Below are positions 1-26,136 of a stretch of 40,793 bases of DNA, piece by piece. The notes under the pieces were generated by a model. The model did no database searches, was not told the origin of the DNA, and saw only the letters and a program-made list of their open reading frames with translations. Each line of letters begins with the position of its first letter. Within the stretch, counting starts at the first letter, position 1. The position numbers and the translations under genes were made by a program. The stretch spans positions 1 to 40,793 of the forward strand of contig JBDTOK010000001.1 in the NCBI GenBank assembly GCA_039933275.1, given 5' to 3'. The DNA is from Chloroflexota bacterium (GTDB lineage: Bacteria; Chloroflexota; Dehalococcoidia; SM23-28-2; RBG-16-64-32).

Positions 1-410
1 GCGCGGGCTTCGTAGAGCTGGTATTCGTCGAAGAGAAAGTCCTTGCGCAGGAGCGGCGGGCCGGCGGGCAGCTTCTCGCGAATCGCTGGCAGAAAGTCGA
101 GGCTGCCCTGGAAATGCTTCTCGTCTGTGAGGACGCTGAGCGCCGCTGCGCCACCCTCGGCGTAGCGGCTCGCGATCCAGACGGGGTCGAAGTCGGCGCG
201 CAAGACGCCGCGCGACGGTGACGCCTTCTTCACCTCGGCGATCATCGTGATGTGCGGCGCACGCAACGCGGCAGTGAAACCGCGCGGCTCCAGCGATTTC
301 TCTGCGCGCGAGCGGATGTCAGCGAGCGGCACGCGCTTCTTGCTGGCAGCGATCACCTCACGCGTATCCGCAACGATGCGGTCGAGGATGGTTTCAGTCT
401 GCTGGGTCAT
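1..410 (-). CDS. trpC: Indole-3-glycerol phosphate synthase, N-terminal part (3' end lies beyond window start)
   Basis: Own translation of the minus strand from ATG (rc of 408-410): MTQQTETILDRIVADTREV...MIAEVKKASPSRGVLRADF...AAALSVLTDEKHFQGSLDFL...PPLLRKDFLFDEYQLYEAR. These are the conserved TrpC blocks. It is absent from the ORF track because no stop lies inside the window. It starts 17 nt after the trpD stop. Confidence 0.85.
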   Translation of the reverse strand, partial: MTQQTETILDRIVADTREVIAASKKRVPLADIRSRAEKSLEPRGFTAALRAPHITMIAEVKKASPSRGVLRADFDPVWIASRYAEGGAAALSVLTDEKHFQGSLDFLPAIREKLPAGPPLLRKDFLFDEYQLYEAR

Positions 411-427
411 GGCTGGATTATCCCACC

Positions 428-1444
428 TCAGCCAAAGCTCGCGCTCAGCTCGATGTACGACGTTAGGTGCTTCGTGGCGGCGCCGGAGTCGATCGACTCG
501 GCCGACTGCGCGATACCGTCGAGGACGTCGCGGGAAATGTCTGCGGCTACGAGGGCGGCGGCGGCATTGAGGAGCACGACGTCGCGGAGGGGGCCGTTGT
601 CTCCGTTGAGAATGGCGCGCAGGGTCGTGGCGTTTTGCTCGGGTGTGCCGCCGCGGATCGCAGCGGGCAGCGCCGTCGTCAGGCCAAGCTCTTGCGGGGA
701 GACCGTGTACTCGCGCACCTTGCCGTCGTGCAGCTCGTAGACCTCGGACGGGCCGTCGAGCGTCAGCTCATCGCAACCGCCGTGGCCGTGGACGACGAGC
801 ACGTGCGTGCTGCCCAGGCGCTCGAGGACGGCTGCCATGAGCGGCGCAATTTCCGAGCGCGCGACGCCGACGAGCTGATGCTTGGCGTGCGCGGGGTTTG
901 TGAGCGGGCCGAGGATGTTGAACGCGGTGCGCACGCCGATCTCACGGCGCGTCGGGCCGGCGTGCTTCATCGAGGGGTGGAACGCCTGCGCGAACATGAA
1001 CCCGAAGCCAGTCTCCTCAATGGACTTGGCGACTTGCTCGGGCGTGAGGTCGATCTTTGCGCCGAGCGCCTCGAGGACGTCCGCGGAGCCGCAGTCGCTG
1101 GACATCGCGCGGTTGCCGTGCTTGGCGATACGCGCACCGGCACCCGCCGCAACGAACGCCGCCGCCGTCGAGATGTTGAATGTGCGCGCGCCATCTCCGC
1201 CGGTCCCGCACGTGTCCAGCAGCGGCCCGTCGACCTTTACCTGTAGCGCGTGCTCACGCATGACGCGCGCCATGCCGGCGATTTCGTCCACGGCCTCACC
1301 CTTCATACGCAGCCCAATGAGGAACGCGGACAGTTGGGCGGGCGTCACCTCCCCGGCGAAGATTTCCCGCATCGCTTCGGCGGCTTCGTCTTCGGTGAGG
1401 TCGCGCTCTTCGTTGACGATGGCTTCGATGGCGTCTTTGATCAT
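428..1444 (-). CDS. trpD: Anthranilate phosphoribosyltransferase
   Basis: 338-aa ORF with the TrpD blocks DTCGTGGDGARTFNISTAAAFVAA, KHGNRAMSS and FNILGPLTNP. It lies in trp operon context. Confidence 0.95.
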   Translation of the reverse strand: MIKDAIEAIVNEERDLTEDEAAEAMREIFAGEVTPAQLSAFLIGLRMKGEAVDEIAGMARVMREHALQVKVDGPLLDTCGTGGDGARTFNISTAAAFVAAGAGARIAKHGNRAMSSDCGSADVLEALGAKIDLTPEQVAKSIEETGFGFMFAQAFHPSMKHAGPTRREIGVRTAFNILGPLTNPAHAKHQLVGVARSEIAPLMAAVLERLGSTHVLVVHGHGGCDELTLDGPSEVYELHDGKVREYTVSPQELGLTTALPAAIRGGTPEQNATTLRAILNGDNGPLRDVVLLNAAAALVAADISRDVLDGIAQSAESIDSGAATKHLTSYIELSASFG

Positions 1445-1445
1445 G

Positions 1446-1721
1446 TCAGCGTTCCTTGTAGCTGTTCGTGTTTCGTCGGCTCACTTCTTCGATTTTGACC
1501 AGGCGATCGGGGTCGAAGACCGCGTAGATGACCCGATAGTCACCGACCTTAATGCGAAAGAGGGGACCGCGCCCGCGGAGTTTTTTGCAACCGTTCGGCC
1601 GCGGATTTGCTGCGAGAGCGCGGATGGCATCGTCGATTCGCAAGTAATCGCGGTGGGATGCGGCTGCGAGTCGCTCGAGTGCTCTTGTAGCGCGCTTCGG
1701 TACTTCAATGCGATACGCCAC
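1446..1721 (-). CDS. Type II toxin, RelE/ParE superfamily
   Basis: 91-aa ORF with a GTG start. It shows the RelE/ParE-like pattern ...NPRPNGCKKLRGRGPLFRIKVGDYRVIYAVFDPDRLVKIEEVSRR. It overlaps the upstream RHH gene by 17 nt. Its TGA stop (1446-1448) is 1 nt from the trpD ATG (1442-1444). Confidence 0.85.
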   Translation of the reverse strand: MAYRIEVPKRATRALERLAAASHRDYLRIDDAIRALAANPRPNGCKKLRGRGPLFRIKVGDYRVIYAVFDPDRLVKIEEVSRRNTNSYKER

Positions 1722-2031
1722 TCTTTTTCCTTCGGCCAGGAGCGGTAGCCTTTCGACGAGTTGGTGGCTTAGTGGTAGCCGCCTTGGTTCCGTTTCGGGA
1801 AGCGATCTTGGCCCGTAGGCGCTTGCTCAACTCTTCGAAACTGATGCTGCCAGACGGGTCAGCGAGATCCTCTGCGAGAGCACGCTCGCCGGCGACGGCA
1901 TCGATGTCGTCTTCGTAGCTGTCTTCGATTGCGGCAAGAATCAGTTTGGACAGACTGGCTCTCTTCCGGACAGCAACTTCCTTGAGGATGTCGTGTAGAT
2001 CATCTGGAATCGAGACGAGTATTCGCGTCAT
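1705..2031 (-). CDS. Type II antitoxin, ribbon-helix-helix (CopG-like)
   Basis: 108-aa ORF with the N-terminal RHH pattern MTRILVSIPDDLHDILKEVAVRKRASLSKLILAAIEDSY. GGAGG (rc of 2039-2043) lies 7 nt before the ATG. It is paired with the downstream RelE-like ORF. It has an unusual Lys/Arg/Thr/Pro-rich C-terminal tail. Confidence 0.75.
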   Translation of the reverse strand: MTRILVSIPDDLHDILKEVAVRKRASLSKLILAAIEDSYEDDIDAVAGERALAEDLADPSGSISFEELSKRLRAKIASRNGTKAATTKPPTRRKATAPGRRKKSGVSH

Positions 2032-2052
2032 AGCCCAACCTCCGACTGATAT

Positions 2053-2064
2053 AGTGATATCACT
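2053..2064. promoter_or_regulatory. Perfect 12-bp palindrome AGTGATATCACT, candidate RHH-antitoxin operator
   Basis: Read directly in the 36-nt trpG-antitoxin spacer. It sits just upstream of the antitoxin Shine-Dalgarno (SD) sequence, where type II antitoxins usually autoregulate. The function is inferred. Confidence 0.4.
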
Positions 2065-2067
2065 GTA

Positions 2068-2631
2068 TCACATCTCCAGGAAGTTCTTGAGCAACTGCTT
2101 GCCCGGCTTCGTCAGGATCGATTCGGGGTGGAACTGCACGCCTTCGACGGCCAGCGTCTTGTGGCGCACGCCCATGATTACGCCGCTATCCGTCGTCGCG
2201 GTTACTTCGAGGACGTCCGGCATCGTGTCGGGGCGGATGCTCAGCGAGTGGTAGCGGATCGCCTCGAAGTCCTGGGGGAGGCCGGCGAAGACGCCCTTGC
2301 CGTCGTGATGGATGACCGACGTCTTGCCGTGCACGATCTCGCCCGCGCCTTCGACGACGCCGCCGAACGCCTCGCCGATCGCCTGGTGACCGAGGCACAC
2401 GCCGAGAATCGGGATCGCGCCTGCGAAGTGCTTGACGGTGGGAATCGAAACACCGGCCTCGGCGGGCGTGCAGGGGCCGGGCGAGATGACGATCTTCTCC
2501 GGCGCCATCTGATCGATGTCCTCGATGCTGATCTTGTCGTTGCGCGCGACCTCGACTTCCGCGCCGAGCTCGCAGAGGTACTGGTACAGGTTGTAAGTAA
2601 ACGAGTCGTAGTTGTCGATTAGCAGAATCAC
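2068..2631 (-). CDS. trpG: Anthranilate synthase component II (glutamine amidotransferase)
   Basis: 187 aa with the class-I GATase blocks MILLIDNYDSFTYNL, PILGVCLGHQ and GVQFHPES. Its GTG start overlaps the SDR stop (GTGA). Confidence 0.93.
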   Translation of the reverse strand: MILLIDNYDSFTYNLYQYLCELGAEVEVARNDKISIEDIDQMAPEKIVISPGPCTPAEAGVSIPTVKHFAGAIPILGVCLGHQAIGEAFGGVVEGAGEIVHGKTSVIHHDGKGVFAGLPQDFEAIRYHSLSIRPDTMPDVLEVTATTDSGVIMGVRHKTLAVEGVQFHPESILTKPGKQLLKNFLEM

Positions 2632-3365
2632 TTCGCCTCCCTCGGCAGGTATATCTCGCGCGGAATGGTGACGCCCGTGATGTCGCGGGCAGCGTCGCTG
2701 GCCAGGAAGACGATCGTGGGCACCAGGTCCTCCGCCTGGCCGACCTGGCCTGTGCGGTACGCTTCTTCGATGCCCTCCGGCGTCTGGTGCGCGCGCCAGA
2801 ACGGCGTGTCCGTGACGCCGGGCGTGAATGCGTTGACCCGAATCCCGTACCGCGCTACTTCCAGCGCGAGCGTTTGCGTGAAGTGGATGACGGCCGCCTT
2901 CGACGCGCCGTACGCCGCAGCACCGGGCCGCGAGCGCATGCCCAGCCCGGACGCAGTGTTGATGATGACGCCCGACTTCTGCTCGATCATTTCGTGCAGC
3001 GCCGCGCGCGAGCAGACAAACGTCCCCCGCACGTTAGTGGCGAACACGGCGTCCCAGTCCTCATCTGTCATGCGGGCGACGAGGTTACCCCGCGCACGCC
3101 CAGCGTTGTTTACGAGAACGTCGATTCGCCCGAAGCGCTTGACGGTCGCCTCGACCATCGCGTCTGTGTCGGCGGTCTGCGAGACGTCGCACTTAACCGC
3201 GAGAGCGTTCGCGCCAATCTCAGCGGCGACAGCGTTCGCGGTGTCCGTGTTGAAGTCAGCGATGACGACAGACGCACCCTCAGCCGCGAAGCCGAGCGCG
3301 ATCGCCCGCCCGATGCCGGAACCGGCGCCGGTGACGATCGCGACTTTGCCTTCGAGTTGTCCCAT
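2628..3365 (-). CDS. Short-chain dehydrogenase/reductase (FabG-like), substrate unknown
   Basis: 245 aa with the TGAGSGIG Rossmann motif, NNAG and the catalytic Y-x3-K (YGASKAA). Confidence 0.92.
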   Translation of the reverse strand: MGQLEGKVAIVTGAGSGIGRAIALGFAAEGASVVIADFNTDTANAVAAEIGANALAVKCDVSQTADTDAMVEATVKRFGRIDVLVNNAGRARGNLVARMTDEDWDAVFATNVRGTFVCSRAALHEMIEQKSGVIINTASGLGMRSRPGAAAYGASKAAVIHFTQTLALEVARYGIRVNAFTPGVTDTPFWRAHQTPEGIEEAYRTGQVGQAEDLVPTIVFLASDAARDITGVTIPREIYLPREAK

Positions 3366-3371
3366 CGCCGC

Positions 3372-3524
3372 CTACTTGAACTGCAGCGTGGCGAGAACAG
3401 CCTCGGCCACTGGCTTGAAGTCATCGAACTGGCTGGTCGGCGACGAGTCCATCGCCGCGAACATCGGGCCGGTGGGGCCGTTCAGACCCAGAACAACCAT
3501 CGCCGCGAAAAAGTGCTTCGTCAC
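3372..3524 (-). CDS. Possible small ORF (50 aa), hypothetical
   Basis: Own translation from GTG (rc of 3522-3524): VTKHFFAAMVVLGLNGPTGPMFAAMDSSPTSQFDDFKPVAEAVLATLQFK*. Third codon positions are mostly G/C, like the neighbouring genes. It fills the trpE-SDR gap almost exactly (4 nt and 6 nt spacers). I recognise no family, and it is too short for the ORF track. Confidence 0.3.
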   Translation of the reverse strand: MTKHFFAAMVVLGLNGPTGPMFAAMDSSPTSQFDDFKPVAEAVLATLQFK

Positions 3525-3528
3525 GGGG

Positions 3529-5034
3529 CTAGTAACCCAAACTTCCGGCTAGAACTGTTTGCTCCATCTCCTCCGCCCGGTCGATCGCCGCCATCATTGC
3601 GCCGGCCTTGGTCAACGTTTCGCGGTACTCCGTCTCCGGTACGCTGTCGTAGACGACGCCGCCACCGCACTGGATGTTCGCGATGCCGTCCTTCATGGCG
3701 ACGGTGCGGATCGTGATCGCGGTGTCCATGTTTCCGCTGAAGTCGAAGTAGCCGACGGCGCCGCCGTACGTCCCGCGCCGCTGCGGCTCCAGCTCGCTGA
3801 TGATCTCCATCGCTCGGATCTTAGGCGCGCCGCTCAGGGTGCCGGCCGGGAAGCAGGCGCGCAGAGCGTCGTAAGCCGACATGCCTTTCTTGAGCTTGCC
3901 CTCGACGCGCGATACCAGGTGCATGAGGTGCGAGTAGCGCTCGATGACCATGAACTCGCGCACGTTGACGGTGCCCGGCTGGCTGACCCGCCCGATGTCG
4001 TTGCGCCCGAGGTCGACGAGCATGACGTGCTCGGCGCGCTCCTTCTCGTCGTTGAGGAGGCGCTTCTCGATTGCGGCGTCTTCGTCCGGGTCGCGCCCGC
4101 GAGGCATCGTGCCGGCGATGGGGTGCGTCTCGACGACGCCGTCTTCGACGCGCACCAGCATCTCCGGCGACGCCCCGACGATATAGGAATCGCCCATCTG
4201 CAGGTAGTACATGTACGGCGACGGGTTCACGGTGCGCAGAGCGCGGTAGATCGAGAACGGGTGCGCAGCGGTCTTTCGGCGCAGGCGCTGGGACGGCACA
4301 ACCTGGATGATGTCGCCGGCGACGATGTACTTCTTCGCCTGGTCCACCATTTCGATGTACCGATCGTGGCCGACGTTTGATTCGACTTCGCCCGGCTCGT
4401 GGTAGAGCGCGGTGGGGTACGGGCTGGCGGGGAGCGCGTGGTTCAGGCGCTTGGCCAGCTCGTCGATCCTCCAGCACGCCTGCCGATACGAAGCCTCAAC
4501 GTCGCCATCGAGCCGACAGTGCGCAACGACCTTGATGACGTGCTTGACGTGATCGAAGACAAGCATCGAGTCGACGAACATAAACAGGGCTTCGGGAAAG
4601 CCGGTCGCGTCGTCGGCGGGGATCGTCACGCGCGGCTCGAAGTGGCGGATAACATCGTAGGCCAGAAAGCCAACGGCGCCGCCAGTAAAGCGCGGCAGCG
4701 ACGTGCGGGCTTCGTTGTCCTTCGGATGCGAGAGGGCGTAGCGCGACATCTCCTGCTCGACCTCGATCAGCGGGTCGACTCCGTCCGTCGGGTCCGCGTA
4801 CGGGCCGCTGCGGTAGACGCGATACGGCTCCGTCCCGATGAAGGAGTAGCGGGCCAGCCGCTCACCGCCTTCCACGGACTCGAGTAGGAACGAGTATTCG
4901 CCGCGCGCGACCTTCAAGAACGCTGACACTGGCGTCTCGAGGTCCGCCGGGACGTCGCGGTAGATCGGTATGAGGTTGTTGTCAGAGTTCTTCGCTTGTT
5001 CGAGCACCTGCTCCAGGGTCGGTTGGTAGTTCAC
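3529..5034 (-). CDS. trpE: Anthranilate synthase component I
   Basis: 501 aa with a GTG start. Chorismate-binding blocks: LLESVEGGERLARYSFIG, GTLSGAPKIRAMEIISELE and RGTYGGAVGYF. Confidence 0.95.
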   Translation of the reverse strand: MNYQPTLEQVLEQAKNSDNNLIPIYRDVPADLETPVSAFLKVARGEYSFLLESVEGGERLARYSFIGTEPYRVYRSGPYADPTDGVDPLIEVEQEMSRYALSHPKDNEARTSLPRFTGGAVGFLAYDVIRHFEPRVTIPADDATGFPEALFMFVDSMLVFDHVKHVIKVVAHCRLDGDVEASYRQACWRIDELAKRLNHALPASPYPTALYHEPGEVESNVGHDRYIEMVDQAKKYIVAGDIIQVVPSQRLRRKTAAHPFSIYRALRTVNPSPYMYYLQMGDSYIVGASPEMLVRVEDGVVETHPIAGTMPRGRDPDEDAAIEKRLLNDEKERAEHVMLVDLGRNDIGRVSQPGTVNVREFMVIERYSHLMHLVSRVEGKLKKGMSAYDALRACFPAGTLSGAPKIRAMEIISELEPQRRGTYGGAVGYFDFSGNMDTAITIRTVAMKDGIANIQCGGGVVYDSVPETEYRETLTKAGAMMAAIDRAEEMEQTVLAGSLGY

Positions 5035-5110
5035 GTCAGCACCACTTTCTCAATTGCATCTGTTCGAAACGGGATCGAGCAGTGGCGCCAGTGGCGATCG
5101 AGGCGATCCA

Positions 5111-6181
5111 TCAGCGCACCTCCAAATGATCGGTGCCGCGGAAGTAGGTCAGGCCCATCGCCTCCCGCGCTTCGGCCAGCGTCTTCTTCGCTTCTTCGCG
5201 CGCGCGGACGGTGCCCGCTTCGATGATCTCCTCGACGTAGCCCTTCTTCTTCGCAAACTCGTTGCGCCGGTCGCGGATCGGGTCGAGGAAGCGGTTGAGC
5301 GCGGCGGCGAGCTTCTTCTTCACCTCGACGTCGCCGACAGCACCGGCGCGGTAGCGCTCTTCGAGGTCAGCGACTTCGGCTTCATCGTCGTTGAAGATCT
5401 CATGGTAGATGAACACCGGGTTGCCCTCGACGGTGCCCGGAATGTCGGCTCGGATGCGGTTCGGGTCGGTGTACATCGCGCGCACCTTCTTCTCGACGTC
5501 TTCCGCCGCGTCCGAAAGCATGATCACGTTGCCGATCGACTTGCTCGCCTTCGCCTGGCCGTCCGTGCCGATGAGCACGGGCGTGATGTAAGCGTCGGGC
5601 TCGGGGAAGACGACCTTGCCATACGTCTGGTTGAAGCGCGTCGCGATCTCGCGCGTCAGCTCAACGTGCGAGGCCTGGTCCTTGCCGACGGGCACGACGT
5701 TGCCCTTCACCATCAGGATGTCCGCAGCCTGCAGGATCGGGTACGAAAGCAGCGCCATCGACGCCGTGTCGATGTTTAGCGCTGTCATCTGCTCCTTGAG
5801 CGTGGGGATGCGCTGCGCCCGCCCCACGCCGACGAGCGGCATGAACAGCCAGAACAGCTCCAGCACCTCCGGCACCAGCGACTGCAGGTAGATCGTCGTC
5901 TTCTGCGGGTCGATCCCAACCGCGAGATAGTCGAGCACGCAGTCGCGGATGTTGTCGCCGATTTCGTTCAGGTTGTCGGTGCGCGTAGTCAGCACGTGCA
6001 GATCGGCGATGAGCACAAACGTATCGATCTGTTCCTGCAAATCGACGCGCATCTTCAGCGAGCCAACGTAGTGGCCCAGGTGCAGCGCGCCGGTCGGGCG
6101 GTCGCCGGTGAGCATGCGCTTCCAGGTTGGCTTGGCCTGCATTGGCGCGCTGGTCGCGGCCGGTATGTCAGTTGTTCTCAT
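5111..6181 (-). CDS. trpS: Tryptophan--tRNA ligase
   Basis: 356 aa with the class-I HIGH-type block LTGDRPTGALHLGHYVGSL and the KMSKS-type block KASKSIG. A UGG-specifier T-box lies directly upstream and the trp operon directly downstream. Confidence 0.92.
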   Translation of the reverse strand: MRTTDIPAATSAPMQAKPTWKRMLTGDRPTGALHLGHYVGSLKMRVDLQEQIDTFVLIADLHVLTTRTDNLNEIGDNIRDCVLDYLAVGIDPQKTTIYLQSLVPEVLELFWLFMPLVGVGRAQRIPTLKEQMTALNIDTASMALLSYPILQAADILMVKGNVVPVGKDQASHVELTREIATRFNQTYGKVVFPEPDAYITPVLIGTDGQAKASKSIGNVIMLSDAAEDVEKKVRAMYTDPNRIRADIPGTVEGNPVFIYHEIFNDDEAEVADLEERYRAGAVGDVEVKKKLAAALNRFLDPIRDRRNEFAKKKGYVEEIIEAGTVRAREEAKKTLAEAREAMGLTYFRGTDHLEVR

Positions 6182-6195
6182 GCGAGTCTCCGATC

Positions 6196-6491
6196 TGCGG
6201 ACAATAAAAAGCCCCTACGCCCGTCAGGGGCGAGGGGTACTCGCGGTGCCACCCTGGTTCGTCGCGGCGGTCAAGCTGCGACCTTCGTTTTACGCATCAC
6301 CTACGGAGGTGAAGCGCTGGGCCTGTAACGGTGCCCTCTCCGGCCTCGGCTACTAGCGTTTCGGCGTTCGCCTGGCGGCTCTCGGGTCCATTCCCTTGCA
6401 GTGCTGACACCGGGTTCTCACCTGTCCCCGGCTCTCTGAGCCTCGCGCCCGCGAGGTACTAGTCCCGTTCGTTGCCGCTTGTTATTCGATT
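6196..6491 (-). promoter_or_regulatory. T-box riboswitch leader, tryptophan (UGG) specifier
   Basis: The minus-strand transcript contains an AGAGAG stem-I element and a specifier loop GGGAA-UGG-ACCCGAGAG (UGG = rc of 6388-6390). It also contains the T-box sequence AACCAGGGUGGCACCGCGAG (rc of 6240-6259), followed by the terminator. Confidence 0.85.
6206..6237 (-). terminator. Intrinsic terminator of the T-box leader
   Basis: The minus strand reads CCCCUCGCCC-CUGA-CGGGCGUAGGGG followed by CUUUUUAUU. It lies 2 nt after the T-box sequence and about 20 nt before the trpS ATG. Confidence 0.7.
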
Positions 6492-6498
6492 GGACGGG

Positions 6499-6528
6499 AG
6501 TGTATCAGGGCCGCTGAAACGCTGTCAA
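6499..6528 (-). promoter_or_regulatory. Candidate sigma-70-type promoter for the T-box/trpS transcript
   Basis: The minus strand reads TTGACA (rc of 6523-6528), an 18-nt spacer ending in TGA, then TACACT (rc of 6499-6504). This gives an extended -10-like TGn. Confidence 0.45.
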
Positions 6529-6562
6529 ACGGCCGCTCAGGTACAATGTGTGTGAGGTTAAC

Positions 6563-6757
6563 GTGCAGACGAAGGACGGCAAAAAGGGCATCCTCGCGGC
6601 TCTCGACAAAGAGCTGGCAGATGACGCGACGGTCGAAGACGCCATCGACTATTTGCTTTACCTGCAGGGGATCGAAGAGGGTCTGGAAGATGAGCGACAA
6701 GGTCGCATGGTCCCCCATGAGACGATCGTTGAAATGATCAAGTCCTGGGCAAAATAA
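6563..6757 (+). CDS. Type II antitoxin (ParE/RelE-associated, family not assigned)
   Basis: The ORF track gives 6548-6757. I prefer the GTG at 6563, 5 nt after GAGG (6554-6557), because TACAAT (6542-6547) looks like the -10 element. The protein ...AIDYLLYLQGIEEGLEDERQGRMVPHETIVEMIKSWAK resembles antitoxins found upstream of ParE/RelE toxins. Its stop overlaps the toxin ORF. Confidence 0.65.
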   Translation: MQTKDGKKGILAALDKELADDATVEDAIDYLLYLQGIEEGLEDERQGRMVPHETIVEMIKSWAK

Positions 6758-7043
6758 ATTGGACTGATCGCGCGCAGCAAGACCTGGCGGCGATCTACGA
6801 ATTCATCGCTTCCGAGAGTCCGCTTGTCGCGCTTCGAGTCGCCCAGCGCATCCAGCTTTCGACCGAGCGACTGATCGAGTTCGCAGAGTCTGGTCGATCC
6901 GTGCCGGAGCACTCTGAGAGCGGCGTTTGCGAGGTGATTGTTCCTCCATACCGGGTTGCGTACCGAACTGTCGGTGACGAAGTACGGATCCTGAAGATCC
7001 ACCACAGCGCGCAAGTAATGAGACGCGCTGATATCGAAGAGTC

Positions 7044-7047
<4 letters not shown>
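6754..7047 (+). CDS. ParE/RelE-family toxin ORF lacking a canonical start codon (possibly inactivated)
   Basis: Own translation: (I)NWTDRAQQDLAAIYEFIASESPLVALRVAQRIQLSTERLIEFAESGRSVPEHSESGVCEVIVPPYRVAYRTVGDEVRILKIHHSAQ...*. The frame is open only from 6733. No ATG, GTG or TTG occurs before the conserved N-terminal W-x3-A-x2-DL block. ATA at 6754 overlaps the antitoxin TAA (ATAA). Confidence 0.6.
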
Positions 7048-8633
<1,586 letters not shown>

Positions 8634-22882: not shown

Positions 22883-23074
22883 TCCGGCGCAACCGCTAGA
22901 AGCGGGAACGCAGGTGCGGCGGAGGGGCCGCGAGGCTGTGAGCGCCGTCACTGACGGTTGTCGGGCGGTTCAGCAATATGTGTGCGTGAGGGGCAAAAGA
23001 GAGGTGACTATCGAACCCAGCTCCAACTGAGACGCAGCCCATTAATGTTCCACCCCAAACATGAAGGGAGACGT

Positions 23075-24151
23075 ATGACCACGCAAGCACAACCCGCAGT
23101 TGACGAACAGGTCCTGCATCAGTTCATGATGAAGGCCGTCGGCGATATGGGCGCAGCCGCCGTCTGCGCCACCATCCTCCTCGGCCAGAAGCTTGGCCTG
23201 TACCAGGCGATGGCCGGCCAGGGCGCAATGACAGCCGCTGACCTCGCGAAGGCTACGAAGACCAACGAGCGCCTCATACAGGAGTGGCTCAATGCGCAGG
23301 CCGCCGGTGGCTACATCAACTATGCGGACGGCAAGTACACGCTCGCGCCGGAGCCGGCGATGGCACTCGCGAACGACCAGAGCCCCGTCTTCATCGGCGG
23401 CGCTTACGACGTTGTCGCCGCGATGTTCGCCTCCGACGACAAACTCGCCGAAGGTTTTCAGAACAACCACGGCCTCGGTTGGAAGGACCAGCACCCGCGC
23501 CTCTTCGGCGGCACGGAGCGCTTCTTCCGGCCCGGCTACCAGGCGTTCCTGACCACAGCCTGGATCCCGGCGCTGGAAGGCGTCGAGGCCAAGCTCAAGG
23601 CCGGCGCGAAGGTCGCCGACGTTGGCTGTGGCCACGGCGCCTCGACGATCATCATGGCCCACGCCTACCCCAACTCCGAGTTCCACGGCTACGACTACCA
23701 CGACGGCTCGATCAAGACAGCGAAGGACCGTGCTAAAGAATCCAACCTCGGCGAAGGCGTGAAGTTCGAGCAGAAGGATGCCAAGTCCTACCCTGGCAAG
23801 AACGAATACGACCTCATCTGCTTCTTCGACTGTCTCCACGACATGGGCGACCCGATCGGCGCCGCCAAGCACGCCCTCAAGGCGCTCAAGGACGACGGCA
23901 CGGTTCTCCTCATCGAGCCGATGGCCGCTGACACGCTGGAAGCCAACCTCGGCTCGCCAATCGCATCGATGTTCTACAGCGCTTCGACGATGCTCTGCAC
24001 GCCCAACTCGATCAGCCAGGGCGGCGAGCCGGCGCTGGGCGCCCAGGCAGGCGAGGCGCGGCTGAAGGAAGTCTTCGAGAAGGCCGGTTTCACGCGCTTC
24101 CGTCGCGCGACCGAGACGCCGTTCAATCTCGTCCTCGAGGCGCGACCGTAA
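23075..24151 (+). CDS. Class I SAM-dependent methyltransferase with N-terminal helical/winged-helix-like domain
   Basis: Motif I VADVGCGHGASTIIMA and post-I FHGYDYH, plus CFFDCLHDMGDP. I set the start at ATG 23075, after GAAGGGAG. The track ORF starts at 22958. Confidence 0.87.
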   Translation: MTTQAQPAVDEQVLHQFMMKAVGDMGAAAVCATILLGQKLGLYQAMAGQGAMTAADLAKATKTNERLIQEWLNAQAAGGYINYADGKYTLAPEPAMALANDQSPVFIGGAYDVVAAMFASDDKLAEGFQNNHGLGWKDQHPRLFGGTERFFRPGYQAFLTTAWIPALEGVEAKLKAGAKVADVGCGHGASTIIMAHAYPNSEFHGYDYHDGSIKTAKDRAKESNLGEGVKFEQKDAKSYPGKNEYDLICFFDCLHDMGDPIGAAKHALKALKDDGTVLLIEPMAADTLEANLGSPIASMFYSASTMLCTPNSISQGGEPALGAQAGEARLKEVFEKAGFTRFRRATETPFNLVLEARP

Positions 24152-24157
24152 CGCTGG

Positions 24158-24772
24158 ATGACTGACGACAGCACGATCTACCACGAAGGCAATCGCCGGC
24201 TGCAGGATGAGTTCGACAGCCGGCGTATCGCCGATCGCCTCGAGCAGGTGACGCTGCACGATCGCTTCACGCCCGGCGACATCGAATTCATCCAGAGCGC
24301 GCCGATGTTCTTCCTGGCGACGGCGGACGCTGACGGCTGGCCCGACGTCTCGTACAAAGGCGGTCTGCCCGGCTTCGTGCAGATCACCGACTACGACGAG
24401 CTGGCGTTCCCCTGCTACGACGGCAACGGCATGTTCAAGAGCATGGGCAACATTCTCGTGAACCCGAAGGTCGGGCTGCTGTTCATCGACTTCGAAGGGC
24501 AGGACCGGATGCGTGTGCAGGGCAGCGCCTCCGTCAGCGACGACGATCCGATGATGGAGCAGTTCCCCGGCGCGCAGCTCATCATCCGCATAAAGGCGGA
24601 GCGCATCTTCCCAAACTGCCCGCGCTACATCCACAAGATGCAGTTGGTCGAGTACTCCGTTTACGCGCCGCGCGCGGAGTACAAGCCGCCGGTGCCCGAT
24701 TGGAAGAACATGCCGGTCTTCCACGACGCGCTTCCGCACAAGGGACCCGCTGCAATCGAGGAAGAGGCGTGA
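24158..24772 (+). CDS. Pyridoxamine 5'-phosphate oxidase-family FMN-binding split-barrel protein
   Basis: 204 aa with the blocks MFFLATADADGWPDVSYKGGLPGFV, GNGMFKSMGNILVNPKVGLLFIDF and NCPRYIHKM. Confidence 0.82.
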   Translation: MTDDSTIYHEGNRRLQDEFDSRRIADRLEQVTLHDRFTPGDIEFIQSAPMFFLATADADGWPDVSYKGGLPGFVQITDYDELAFPCYDGNGMFKSMGNILVNPKVGLLFIDFEGQDRMRVQGSASVSDDDPMMEQFPGAQLIIRIKAERIFPNCPRYIHKMQLVEYSVYAPRAEYKPPVPDWKNMPVFHDALPHKGPAAIEEEA

Positions 24773-24773
24773 C

Positions 24774-25811
24774 ATGAGCAACGAGACACCGTTCACGGTC
24801 GCCGCAGCGCAGATCGCGCCCGTCTTCATGGACCGCGAGGCCACGATCGACAAAGCCTGCGAGACGATGGCCGAAGCGGCGAAGAACGGCGCAAAGCTCG
24901 TCGTCTTTCCGGAGGCGCTCGTGCCCGGCTATCCCGACTGGGTGTGGACCGTCCCGCCGGGAGTTCGTGGCGACATCCACGCCGAGATGTACGGCGAACT
25001 CCTCGACCAGGCGGTGACGATCCCCTCGCCTGCCGTCGACAAGCTCTGCCGCGCGGCGAAGGCGAACGGCGTCTACGTCGTCGTTGGCGTCAACGAACTG
25101 AACGCGGACGCCAGCGGCGGTTCGCTCTACAACACGCTCATCTACATCGACGACCAGGGCCGGCTGCTCGGCAAGCATCGCAAGCTAGTGCCCACTGTCT
25201 CGGAGCGCCTGGTCTGGACCCCCGGCGACGGCAGCACGCTGGAGGTATACGACACGCCGTTCGGCAAGCTCGGCGGGCTGATCTGCTGGGAGAACTATAT
25301 GCCGCTAGCCCGCTATACGATGTACGCGTGGGGCGTGCAGATCTACGTCGCACCGACGTGGGACAGCTCGGATGGCTGGATCGGCACGCTGCAGCACATC
25401 GCCCGCGAAGGTGGCTGCGTCGTCATCGGCTGCTGCATCGCGATGCGCCGCGACCAGATCCCGGACAAGTACGAATTCCGCAAACTCTACCCACCCGCCG
25501 AAAAACCTGAAGACGAGTGGGTAAACGACGGCAACAGCGCCATCATCTCGCCGCGCGGGCGCATCCTCGCTGGCCCGGCCTCGCGTGTGGAAACGATCCT
25601 CTACGCCGAGATCGAGCCGTCATCACTGCGCCGCAGCAAGTTCATGCTGGACGTCGCCGGCCACTACGCCCGACCGGACGTCTTCCAGCTAACCGTCAAC
25701 CGCGAACCGAACCACATGATCCACACAAACGGCGGCGATCACCCGTCGCCGATCAACGGCAAGAAAGCGCCGGTCCCGCCTCGCAAGGCGCGGGAGCTCG
25801 GCGCCAAGTAG
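24774..25811 (+). CDS. Nitrilase (carbon-nitrogen hydrolase branch 1)
   Basis: 345 aa. The Glu-Lys-Cys triad contexts are intact: VVFPEALVPGYP, HRKLVPT and GLICWENYMPLAR. Confidence 0.9.
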   Translation: MSNETPFTVAAAQIAPVFMDREATIDKACETMAEAAKNGAKLVVFPEALVPGYPDWVWTVPPGVRGDIHAEMYGELLDQAVTIPSPAVDKLCRAAKANGVYVVVGVNELNADASGGSLYNTLIYIDDQGRLLGKHRKLVPTVSERLVWTPGDGSTLEVYDTPFGKLGGLICWENYMPLARYTMYAWGVQIYVAPTWDSSDGWIGTLQHIAREGGCVVIGCCIAMRRDQIPDKYEFRKLYPPAEKPEDEWVNDGNSAIISPRGRILAGPASRVETILYAEIEPSSLRRSKFMLDVAGHYARPDVFQLTVNREPNHMIHTNGGDHPSPINGKKAPVPPRKARELGAK

Positions 25812-25824
25812 GAGGAGAATCCCC

Positions 25825-26136
25825 ATGGCAGCGAAGCACGTCACGATCTGGAAGATGAAGATCAAGCCCGGCAAGATGGACGAGGTCAGGGCGATCATGA
25901 GTTCGCCCGCGGACCAGGAGCGCCTCAAGAAGGCTGGTTGGCAGATGACCGTAGTCGGCACCAGTAAGGACCACCCCGAAGAGGTCTGGGGCATGGTCAC
26001 CTGGGACAACAGCGAAAACTACAAGAAGAACGCCGACAGCGGCGATCAAGACGCCGACTACCAGAAGATGCGCGCTCTCCTCACCGCTGACCCGGAGTGG
26101 CACGACTGCGACGTCGTCGAAGAATCGCACGCCTAG
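25825..26136 (+). CDS. Small ABM/dimeric alpha-beta-barrel-like protein, hypothetical
   Basis: 103 aa, starting 13 nt after the nitrilase stop. The fold guess comes from the size and the pattern HVTIWKMKIKPGKMDEV...WGMVTWDNSENY. Confidence 0.65.
   Translation: MAAKHVTIWKMKIKPGKMDEVRAIMSSPADQERLKKAGWQMTVVGTSKDHPEEVWGMVTWDNSENYKKNADSGDQDADYQKMRALLTADPEWHDCDVVEESHA

Follow-up and report, generated by a model that had tools for sequence, protein, structure and literature searches.

A toxin–antitoxin cassette between trpG and trpD in a T-box-led trp operon, and the occupants of the same slot across Dehalococcoidia

Toxin–antitoxin (TA) modules are usually viewed as free-standing, sporadically distributed two-gene operons. 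Here we describe a TA pair that lies inside the trp operon of a Chloroflexota bacterium, between trpG and trpD, on the minus strand of a 40,793-nt stretch of DNA (the window; its coordinates refer to the whole stretch), and we compare it with the corresponding place in related species, where TA genes of several families recur. Our preferred reading, to which we give a probability of about 0.6, is that the window carries a genuine RelBE-type TA cassette (1446..2070, minus strand) that is primarily selfish and addictive, that can be exchanged, and that occupies a long-lived trpG–trpD slot in a T-box-controlled operon. The components of this arrangement are ordinary; what is unusual is a conserved slot, open to multiple TA families, inside a riboswitch-controlled biosynthetic operon. 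Consistent with the initial annotation of this DNA, which was made from the sequence alone and knew of no TA module wired into an amino-acid biosynthesis operon, our literature search found no report of TA modules in trp or other amino-acid biosynthetic operons.

The trpG–trpD slot and its occupants

The cassette in the window consists of two genes and a short upstream region, all on the minus strand:

1705..2031 (-): antitoxin, an open reading frame (ORF) of 108 aa with a predicted N-terminal ribbon-helix-helix (RHH) domain
1446..1721 (-): toxin of predicted RelE fold, an ORF of 91 aa with a GTG start, overlapping the antitoxin gene by 17 nt
2039..2043 (-): Shine–Dalgarno sequence of the antitoxin, GGAGG, kept in orthologues
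2047..2070 (-): operator-like 24-nt imperfect palindrome TGATAcAGTGATATCACTaTATCA, whose core is a perfect 12-mer and which overlaps the trpG stop codon
2070..2062 (-): extended -10-like motif TGATACAGT, within the 24-nt palindrome

The antitoxin gene comes first, and the two genes are co-oriented and overlapping, a layout that is common to 15 related loci. A spacer of 36 nt (2067..2032) separates trpG from the antitoxin, and a single nucleotide separates the toxin stop from the trpD start (cgcTGAcATGatc, TGAcATG). In every locus of the same RHH/RelE family, which we call family A, the distance from toxin stop to trpD start lies between -4 and +7 nt. The initial annotation had described a complete type II pair between trpG and trpD on the same strand, with the toxin TGA 1 nt from the trpD ATG; the coordinates, the Pfam matches and the junction sequence all agree with that description.

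To see what occupies this place elsewhere, we scanned for loci with TrpD as the seed and one genome per species. This yielded 80 loci, each in a metagenome-assembled genome of Dehalococcoidia or Chloroflexota, and the slot counts below cover the 75 in which trpG and trpD are on one contig. TA genes are present at the trpG–trpD junction in 40 of these 75 species: family A in 15, family B (a 60-70 aa antitoxin with a ParE_toxin protein, 59 bits) in 23 and HicAB in 2, in each case in the same orientation as the operon. The contents of the slot were as follows:

Family A, complete pair: 11 loci
Family A, antitoxin only: 4 loci (L008, L026, L053, L066)
Family B, with toxin: 18 loci
Family B, antitoxin only: 5 loci
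HicAB: 2 loci
Cupredoxin-like lipoprotein: 5 loci
Other inserts: 7 loci
Empty: 23 loci; in the closest relatives, 1-16 nt separate trpG from trpD

All matches to the hidden Markov models of families A and B in these loci, which total about 1 Mb, fall in the trpG–trpD gap and on the operon strand. Each family is confined to one TrpD clade, and T-box leaders precede the trp operon in both clades; in the family B clade, the start of the first antitoxin overlaps the trpG stop. The lipoprotein, of about 195 aa and with a weak cupredoxin-like match, is found in the gap in L017, L019, L020, L021, L028 and L037, where it replaces the TA pair, except that in L028 it stands beside one.

Homologues of the window proteins were also followed to their own surroundings. 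The nearest public homologues of the antitoxin (L001, L002, L003, L004 to L006 and L167) all lie between trpG and trpD, as does a more distant toxin homologue (P0009, locus L168), which also sits in the trp operon slot; another toxin homologue, P0016, 49% identical, lies outside it. The nearest TrpD relative of the window, L007, holds a different insert in its slot. The comparison of orthologous trp operons that the initial annotation had proposed thus found the pair in this position in L001, L003, L004 and L167, as well as in less closely related species, and the pair is not absent from close relatives. What does not survive is the picture of a one-off wiring, because the slot exists class-wide and the pair is one of its occupants, ParE-like and HicAB pairs being others. 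A metagenome scan, with a 6-sequence toxin alignment as the query, served as a negative control for the specificity of the slot and added no members to it: none of 80 metagenomic RelE homologues (34-61% identity) adjoins trp genes, and a weak family A antitoxin stands beside only 2 of the 80.

An exact-match look-up of the window toxin sequence in public assemblies returned nothing. The toxin of L001 (8317..8592) is uncalled in the public record, yet the gene is intact, starts with TTG and meets trpD through TGAcATG as in the window, and L167 has an uncalled gap of about 260 nt (655..914) where the toxin would sit. TA pairs in the trpG–trpD slot may therefore be under-annotated, and annotation pipelines should expect TA inserts in Chloroflexota trp operons.

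The slot also bears marks of exchange. L004 and L024 have TrpD proteins that are 98% identical and trpG and trpD DNA that is about 97% identical, whereas their cassettes are only about 50-55% identical (toxins 46%, antitoxins 51%); along the alignment (336..990 in L004, about 3236..3890 in L024), the drop in identity begins precisely at the stop of trpG and ends at the start of trpD. In L008 (5704..7000), an antitoxin without a toxin is followed by a chimeric ORF, in which the N-terminal 32 aa of TrpD are fused to the C-terminal 11 aa of TrpG, and then by an unrelated 301-aa gene, as if recombination had placed two slot alleles in tandem. The composition of the window cassette is foreign-looking: its GC content is 0.56 against 0.63-0.68 in the flanks, and its GC content at third codon positions (GC3) is 0.57-0.63 against 0.86-0.89, with a similar cassette–flank GC offset in eight other lineages. 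A plasmid origin was considered and rejected, because no plasmid relative of the antitoxin was found and the plasmid relatives of the toxin are only distant (37-50% identity over part of its length).

Decay is common as well. Across 24 family B slots there are about 11 intact toxins, 8 that are split or partial and 5 cases of antitoxin only, often in several copies. The identity of the TA proteins tracks that of TrpD (Spearman 0.52-0.56), so much of the descent is vertical. Taken together, swapping, low GC3 and decayed toxins speak more for a mobile addiction cassette than for a tailored regulator. As a separate observation, family B antitoxin-like domains are repeated in tandem, two to four at a time, in the trpG–trpD gaps of L048, L052, L074 and L080; the arrays include 132-aa two-domain proteins, and their toxin is often decayed or missing.

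The window pair and the operon that carries it

The toxin matches the Pfam family ParE_toxin (PF05016) at 33.9 bits, above the cut-off of 23, and a profile built from 15 family toxins matches solved RelE structures with E = 5e-15 to 1e-7. These include P. horikoshii aRelE (1wmi, E = 5e-15), E. coli RelE (4fxe/4v7k) and M. tuberculosis Rv2866, and the profile also matches 3g5o. Toxin residues R56, K58, R63 and R82/R83 align to K52, K54, R61 and K80/R81 of E. coli RelE, and Y88 sits 5-6 residues after R82/R83, as Y87 follows R81 in the E. coli protein; across the 15 family toxins, R56, R63 and Y88 are invariant and R58, R82 and R83 are near-invariant. The structure matches and the conservation of the RelE catalytic positions mark the toxin as RelE-like rather than ParE-like by sequence, and we presume it to be a ribosome-dependent mRNA interferase. 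The alternative of a ParE-type gyrase poison was rejected for this toxin on the same two grounds.

The antitoxin matches DUF6290 (PF19807) at 32.5 bits, with a cut-off of 27. In its structural model (pLDDT 69), an extended N-terminus is followed by helices at residues 10-23, 27-57 and 65-79; residues 80-108 form a tail that lacks secondary structure and is modelled with low confidence. The top fold matches of the model are Arc, CopG and RHH antitoxins (TM 0.66-0.8 over about 42 residues), with probabilities of up to 0.98 but weak E-values (E >= 0.2), and a single-sequence search of the PDB with the antitoxin returned no meaningful match. The atypical basic tail that had been noticed in the antitoxin (residues ~69-108) is real, and its composition is conserved whereas its sequence is not. 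Both proteins fall below the cut-offs of the curated families, the toxin for NCBIfam TIGR02385 RelE_StbE (16.6 against 27.9 bits) and the antitoxin for NF046040 RelB_antitoxin (34.6 against 50 bits); judged by these scores, the pair is a divergent relative of RelE_StbE/RelB and not a member. The initial annotation had also remarked that neither TA protein contains Trp. This is true in the window but does not hold among relatives: at a position where the window antitoxin has Phe, six of its eight closest counterparts carry Trp, which is also found in distant family A toxins. An adaptive absence of Trp was rejected accordingly.

The operon around the pair has the following elements:

6499..6528 (-): sigma-70-type promoter (TTGACA, 18 nt, TACACT, with TG upstream), a short way ahead of the T-box
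6223..6481 (-): T-box leader whose specifier is the Trp codon UGG, RF00230, full length 1-219
6231..6211 (-): T-box terminator hairpin, followed by TTTTTATT; whole element 6231..6203
5111..6181 (-): trpS (tryptophanyl-tRNA synthetase), the first gene after the T-box; PF00579, 244.5 bits
3529..5034 (-): trpE (anthranilate synthase component I), strong family match
3372..3524 (-): 50-aa ORF between trpE and the next gene
2628..3365 (-): short-chain dehydrogenase (SDR) gene, an insert in the operon; its stop and the trpG start overlap (GTGA)
2068..2631 (-): trpG (glutamine amidotransferase subunit), strong family match
428..1444 (-): trpD, strong family match, starting 1 nt after the toxin stop
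1..410 (-): 5' part of trpC, which runs off the window; relatives continue trpC-trpF-trpB

The T-box leader scores 79.8 bits against RF00230 (E = 4e-17), short of the Rfam gathering score of 93; for this reason, a search of the window at Rfam gathering thresholds returned no match, and the leader surfaced only in an E-value search. Its specifier reads GAA-UGG-A, with a Trp codon, the T-box sequence AGGGUGGCACCGCGAG is present, and homologous leaders occupy the same place in relatives (49-97 bits). The T-box control that had been assigned to this operon is supported by a full-length match, albeit below the gathering score, together with the UGG specifier and a terminator.

The promoter at 6499..6528 is the only promoter-like site found in positions 1..7100. 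The same region has 8 terminator-like sites, against 4.9 +/- 2.3 expected in shuffled sequence, and none of them lies between trpG and trpD. Genes from trpE to trpC are spaced by -17 to +36 nt, and the trpS–trpE spacer is 76 nt. The co-orientation of the genes, the lack of terminators and the abutment on trpD make it very likely that the cassette is co-transcribed with the trp operon, and the sequence evidence as a whole indicates that the window pair is a genuine type II RHH/RelE TA pair inside a compact T-box-led operon.

The spacer between trpG and the antitoxin contains a perfect 12-nt palindrome, AGTGATATCACT, at 2064..2053 (minus strand). The initial annotation had pointed to it as occupying the usual position for antitoxin autoregulation, and we find it to be part of an operator-like element that is conserved in orthologous loci. 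The palindrome exceeds what chance would give, and the 40.8-kb window has a single copy of GTGATATCAC. GATATC-type repeats, with a consensus near TGATATAGTGATATCACGATATCA, are kept upstream of the antitoxin across family A loci, although the TA proteins themselves are only 35-75% identical, mostly 35-55% between lineages. In 14 of 15 loci, the motif TGnTAnnnT stands at -36 to -45 relative to the start of the antitoxin; the whole window, both strands counted, has only 6 occurrences. A canonical -35/-10 promoter was not found in the trpG–antitoxin spacer, where no -35 element is evident. We rejected the palindrome as an intrinsic terminator or structured RNA, because it folds no better than shuffled sequence (z-score -1.39; 21 of 200 shuffles fold as well) and has no U-run.

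We infer from this conservation that the GATATC repeats are an antitoxin operator overlapping a weak internal promoter. Given the extended -10-like motif, the cassette may also have its own promoter and, if that promoter is real, trpD and trpC need not depend on read-through alone. The earlier statement that trpD and trpC must be transcribed through the TA genes therefore holds in part: there is neither a terminator nor room for a promoter between the toxin and trpD, but a possible promoter within the cassette would relax the requirement.

Weighing the explanations

In the reading that we favour, the cassette would be primarily an addictive, selfish element, tolerated because the transcription of the operon and the translational start context of trpD are preserved. 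An empty allele would be resisted, since a cell that lost the antitoxin would be exposed to free toxin, and homologous recombination in the conserved trpG and trpD flanks would let the cassette spread or be swapped. If co-transcription holds, uncharged tRNA-Trp should raise cassette transcription through T-box read-through, an effect of position that follows from the anatomy of the operon, and an autoregulated promoter of its own would probably add basal transcription of trpD-trpC-trpF-trpB. The occurrence of three toxin types, the third of slots that are empty, and the decay, the swaps and the foreign composition together suggest that the cassette is selfish and tolerated. Moreover, 23 of the 75 relatives have a clean trpG–trpD junction of 1-16 nt, so the trp operon does not need the cassette.

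Several points weigh against this interpretation. Co-transcription, the internal promoter and addiction are all deduced from sequence alone, and the enrichment of TA genes in the slot is judged from the flanks that were fetched and from general knowledge of TA density. The restriction of families A and B to one clade each and the Spearman values of 0.52-0.56 reflect much vertical history, which would also fit a retained function. Other junctions in the same operons also bear inserts (SDR, glyoxalase, DUF4258/DUF2283), and the operon may be generally tolerant of insertions, which would explain part of the pattern. Finally, the lower GC content could come partly from the amino-acid composition of small basic proteins.

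The position of the cassette below a Trp T-box raises the idea of a domesticated starvation brake. Read-through under Trp limitation would raise TA expression, and freed toxin would throttle translation (RelE) or replication (ParE) until tRNA-Trp was recharged, which would amount to an amino-acid-specific local stringent response. TA cassettes do lie downstream of Trp T-boxes in both clades, the slot has long been occupied within clades and the catalytic residues of the family A toxins are conserved; in family B, where the antitoxin start overlaps the trpG stop, there is no spacer to hold a promoter of its own, and expression would have to follow the operon. We nevertheless regard such a brake as unlikely. 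The slot is empty in 23 of 75 species, toxins are frequently decayed or lost, and the occupants differ in toxin type (RelE-like, ParE-like and HicA), so that no single activity is selected. Furthermore, co-transcription lifts toxin and antitoxin together, with no evident mechanism for selective loss of the antitoxin, and the Trp content of the proteins has no consistent bias.

A stronger version holds that the slot is a selected Trp-starvation response across Dehalococcoidia, in which the toxin slows translation or replication and an antitoxin–operator complex gates the distal trp genes. We find this somewhat harder still to credit; if true, it would represent a riboswitch-coupled, amino-acid-specific growth brake made from interchangeable TA cassettes. 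A physiological role in Trp starvation is possible, as is operator gating of the distal trp genes, and neither draws specific support from the present data.

Doubtful to a similar degree is regulatory co-option, in which the main contribution of the cassette would be its operator and promoter. The antitoxin–toxin complex would then set the basal transcription of trpD-trpC-trpF-trpB, in the manner of the internal trp promoter of E. coli, and might roadblock read-through from the T-box promoter. This would account for the constant spacing, in 14 of 15 loci, between the antitoxin start and the upstream GATATC repeats and extended -10-like motif, for the retention of the antitoxin after toxin loss in L008, L026, L053 and L066, and for the tight coupling of the toxin to trpD. 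However, an antitoxin that outlasts its toxin is also predicted by ordinary TA decay, the -35 element was not found in the spacer, family B cassettes have no spacer in which such an element could lie, and relatives with an empty slot manage without the cassette.

The slot could also be an anti-phage hotspot of the abortive-infection kind, resembling a defence island in which diverse TA-type cassettes are swapped under phage pressure. Several TA families at one site, allele swaps between near-identical genomes and a foreign-looking composition would all be expected of it. Yet none of the PADLOC-DB defence models matches the six proteins tested from the slot families, phage or integrase genes were not noted in the slot and the interior of a biosynthetic operon would be an unusual place for a defence island, and we consider this explanation improbable. 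A recent sporadic insertion that is peculiar to the genome of the window and has no wider significance, as the lower GC content of the cassette and the different insert in L007 might have suggested, is refuted by same-site occurrence in related species, with family A at this site in 15 of the 75 TrpD-sampled species and, as found through the TA proteins, in L001, L003, L004, L167 and L168, and with conserved junctions and operator.

Related systems and neighbouring inserts

The window pair resembles RelBE modules, such as those of E. coli (RelBE) and P. horikoshii (aRelE–aRelB, PDB 1wmi), in its overlapping genes with the antitoxin first, its predicted RHH antitoxin, its toxin family that matches RelE structures with conserved residues at the RelE catalytic positions, and the palindromic repeats upstream, as autoregulation would predict. 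It differs in scoring below the RelE_StbE and RelB cut-offs and in having a DUF6290 antitoxin with a long, basic, disordered tail; in addition, the module is not free-standing but lies inside a biosynthetic operon and abuts the next gene.

Chromosomal integron arrays, of which the Vibrio superintegron is an example, are promoter-poor and carry small, co-oriented TA cassettes, often RelE/ParE or HigBA, that are horizontally exchanged and are thought to stabilise their neighbourhood by addiction. The trp-slot cassettes are likewise small, co-oriented and exchanged. Unlike in integrons, no integrase gene or attC-type site was noticed in the slot, for which no dedicated search was made, and the limits of the slot, set by the stop of trpG and the start of trpD, point to homologous recombination in the flanks as the means of exchange. 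In E. coli, an internal promoter of the trp operon, p2, lies within a coding region and provides basal expression of the distal trp genes. The putative extended -10 promoter of the cassette could supply the distal trp genes in a similar way, whereas p2 is not tied to a repressor or to a mobile cassette.

In S. aureus, mazEF lies immediately upstream of the rsbUVW-sigB operon and is co-transcribed with it, and the two are adjacent in Listeria too (PMC5647390, PMC5308263). Both cases place a chromosomal TA module at a fixed position by a housekeeping or regulatory operon with shared transcripts, which in the trp operon are predicted from its layout. However, mazEF precedes its operon and is a single conserved orthologue, whereas the trp cassette is internal, between two enzyme genes and under a riboswitch, and its slot holds TA families and alleles that differ by species. 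In Dehalococcoides, Trp T-boxes have been described upstream of trpE and of a trpB-like gene (Wels et al. 2008, PMC2494555). The leader in the window is of the same kind and comes from the same class, but TA genes in the operon were not reported in that work, and in the window trpS is the first gene after the T-box.

One fixed gap in an essential riboswitch-controlled biosynthetic operon therefore appears as a class-wide home for interchangeable TA cassettes. It offers a natural system in which to ask how selfish addiction modules persist and spread in chromosomes, the apparent route of spread being recombination through conserved operon flanks, with loss perhaps opposed by addiction. It would also be suited to asking whether embedding in an operon turns TA modules into regulators, through an internal promoter or a roadblock, and whether TA activity is ever tied to a specific nutrient signal.

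Inserts at the other junctions of these operons vary by clade. The SDR gene is kept at the trpE–trpG junction in 21 related loci, and in other clades this junction carries a glyoxalase (29 loci) or NUDIX-methyltransferase insert. The 50-aa ORF at 3372..3524 had no family match in protein-family searches; L001 has a 214-aa ORF at the same place, so the window ORF is possibly a remnant. At the trpD–trpC junction of SAR202-type operons, about 12 loci carry a pair of DUF4258 and DUF2283 proteins (for example, L046 8005..8268 and L083 8263..8745). The DUF4258-like match is weak, the DUF2283 match is above its cut-off, and a 160-aa DUF2283 protein seemingly consists of two such repeats when inspected by eye. 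Judged by these matches, the operons seem to have a second TA-like slot at this junction.

A second TA pair, of family B, lies in the window itself at 6548..7047 on the plus strand, divergent from the trp operon and upstream of its promoter. The start of its antitoxin is probably the GTG at 6563, and the frame of its ParE-like toxin is open from 6736 without a canonical start codon before 6901. A TACAAT sequence at 6542..6547 lies 14 nt from the -35 box of the trp promoter on the opposite strand. Family B is also the occupant of the trpG–trpD slot in the SAR202-type clade, and L001 has no second pair at the corresponding place. Further along the window, a stretch of ORFs at 23042..26130 has an unusually low GC3 of 0.45-0.65, compared with about 0.85 elsewhere.

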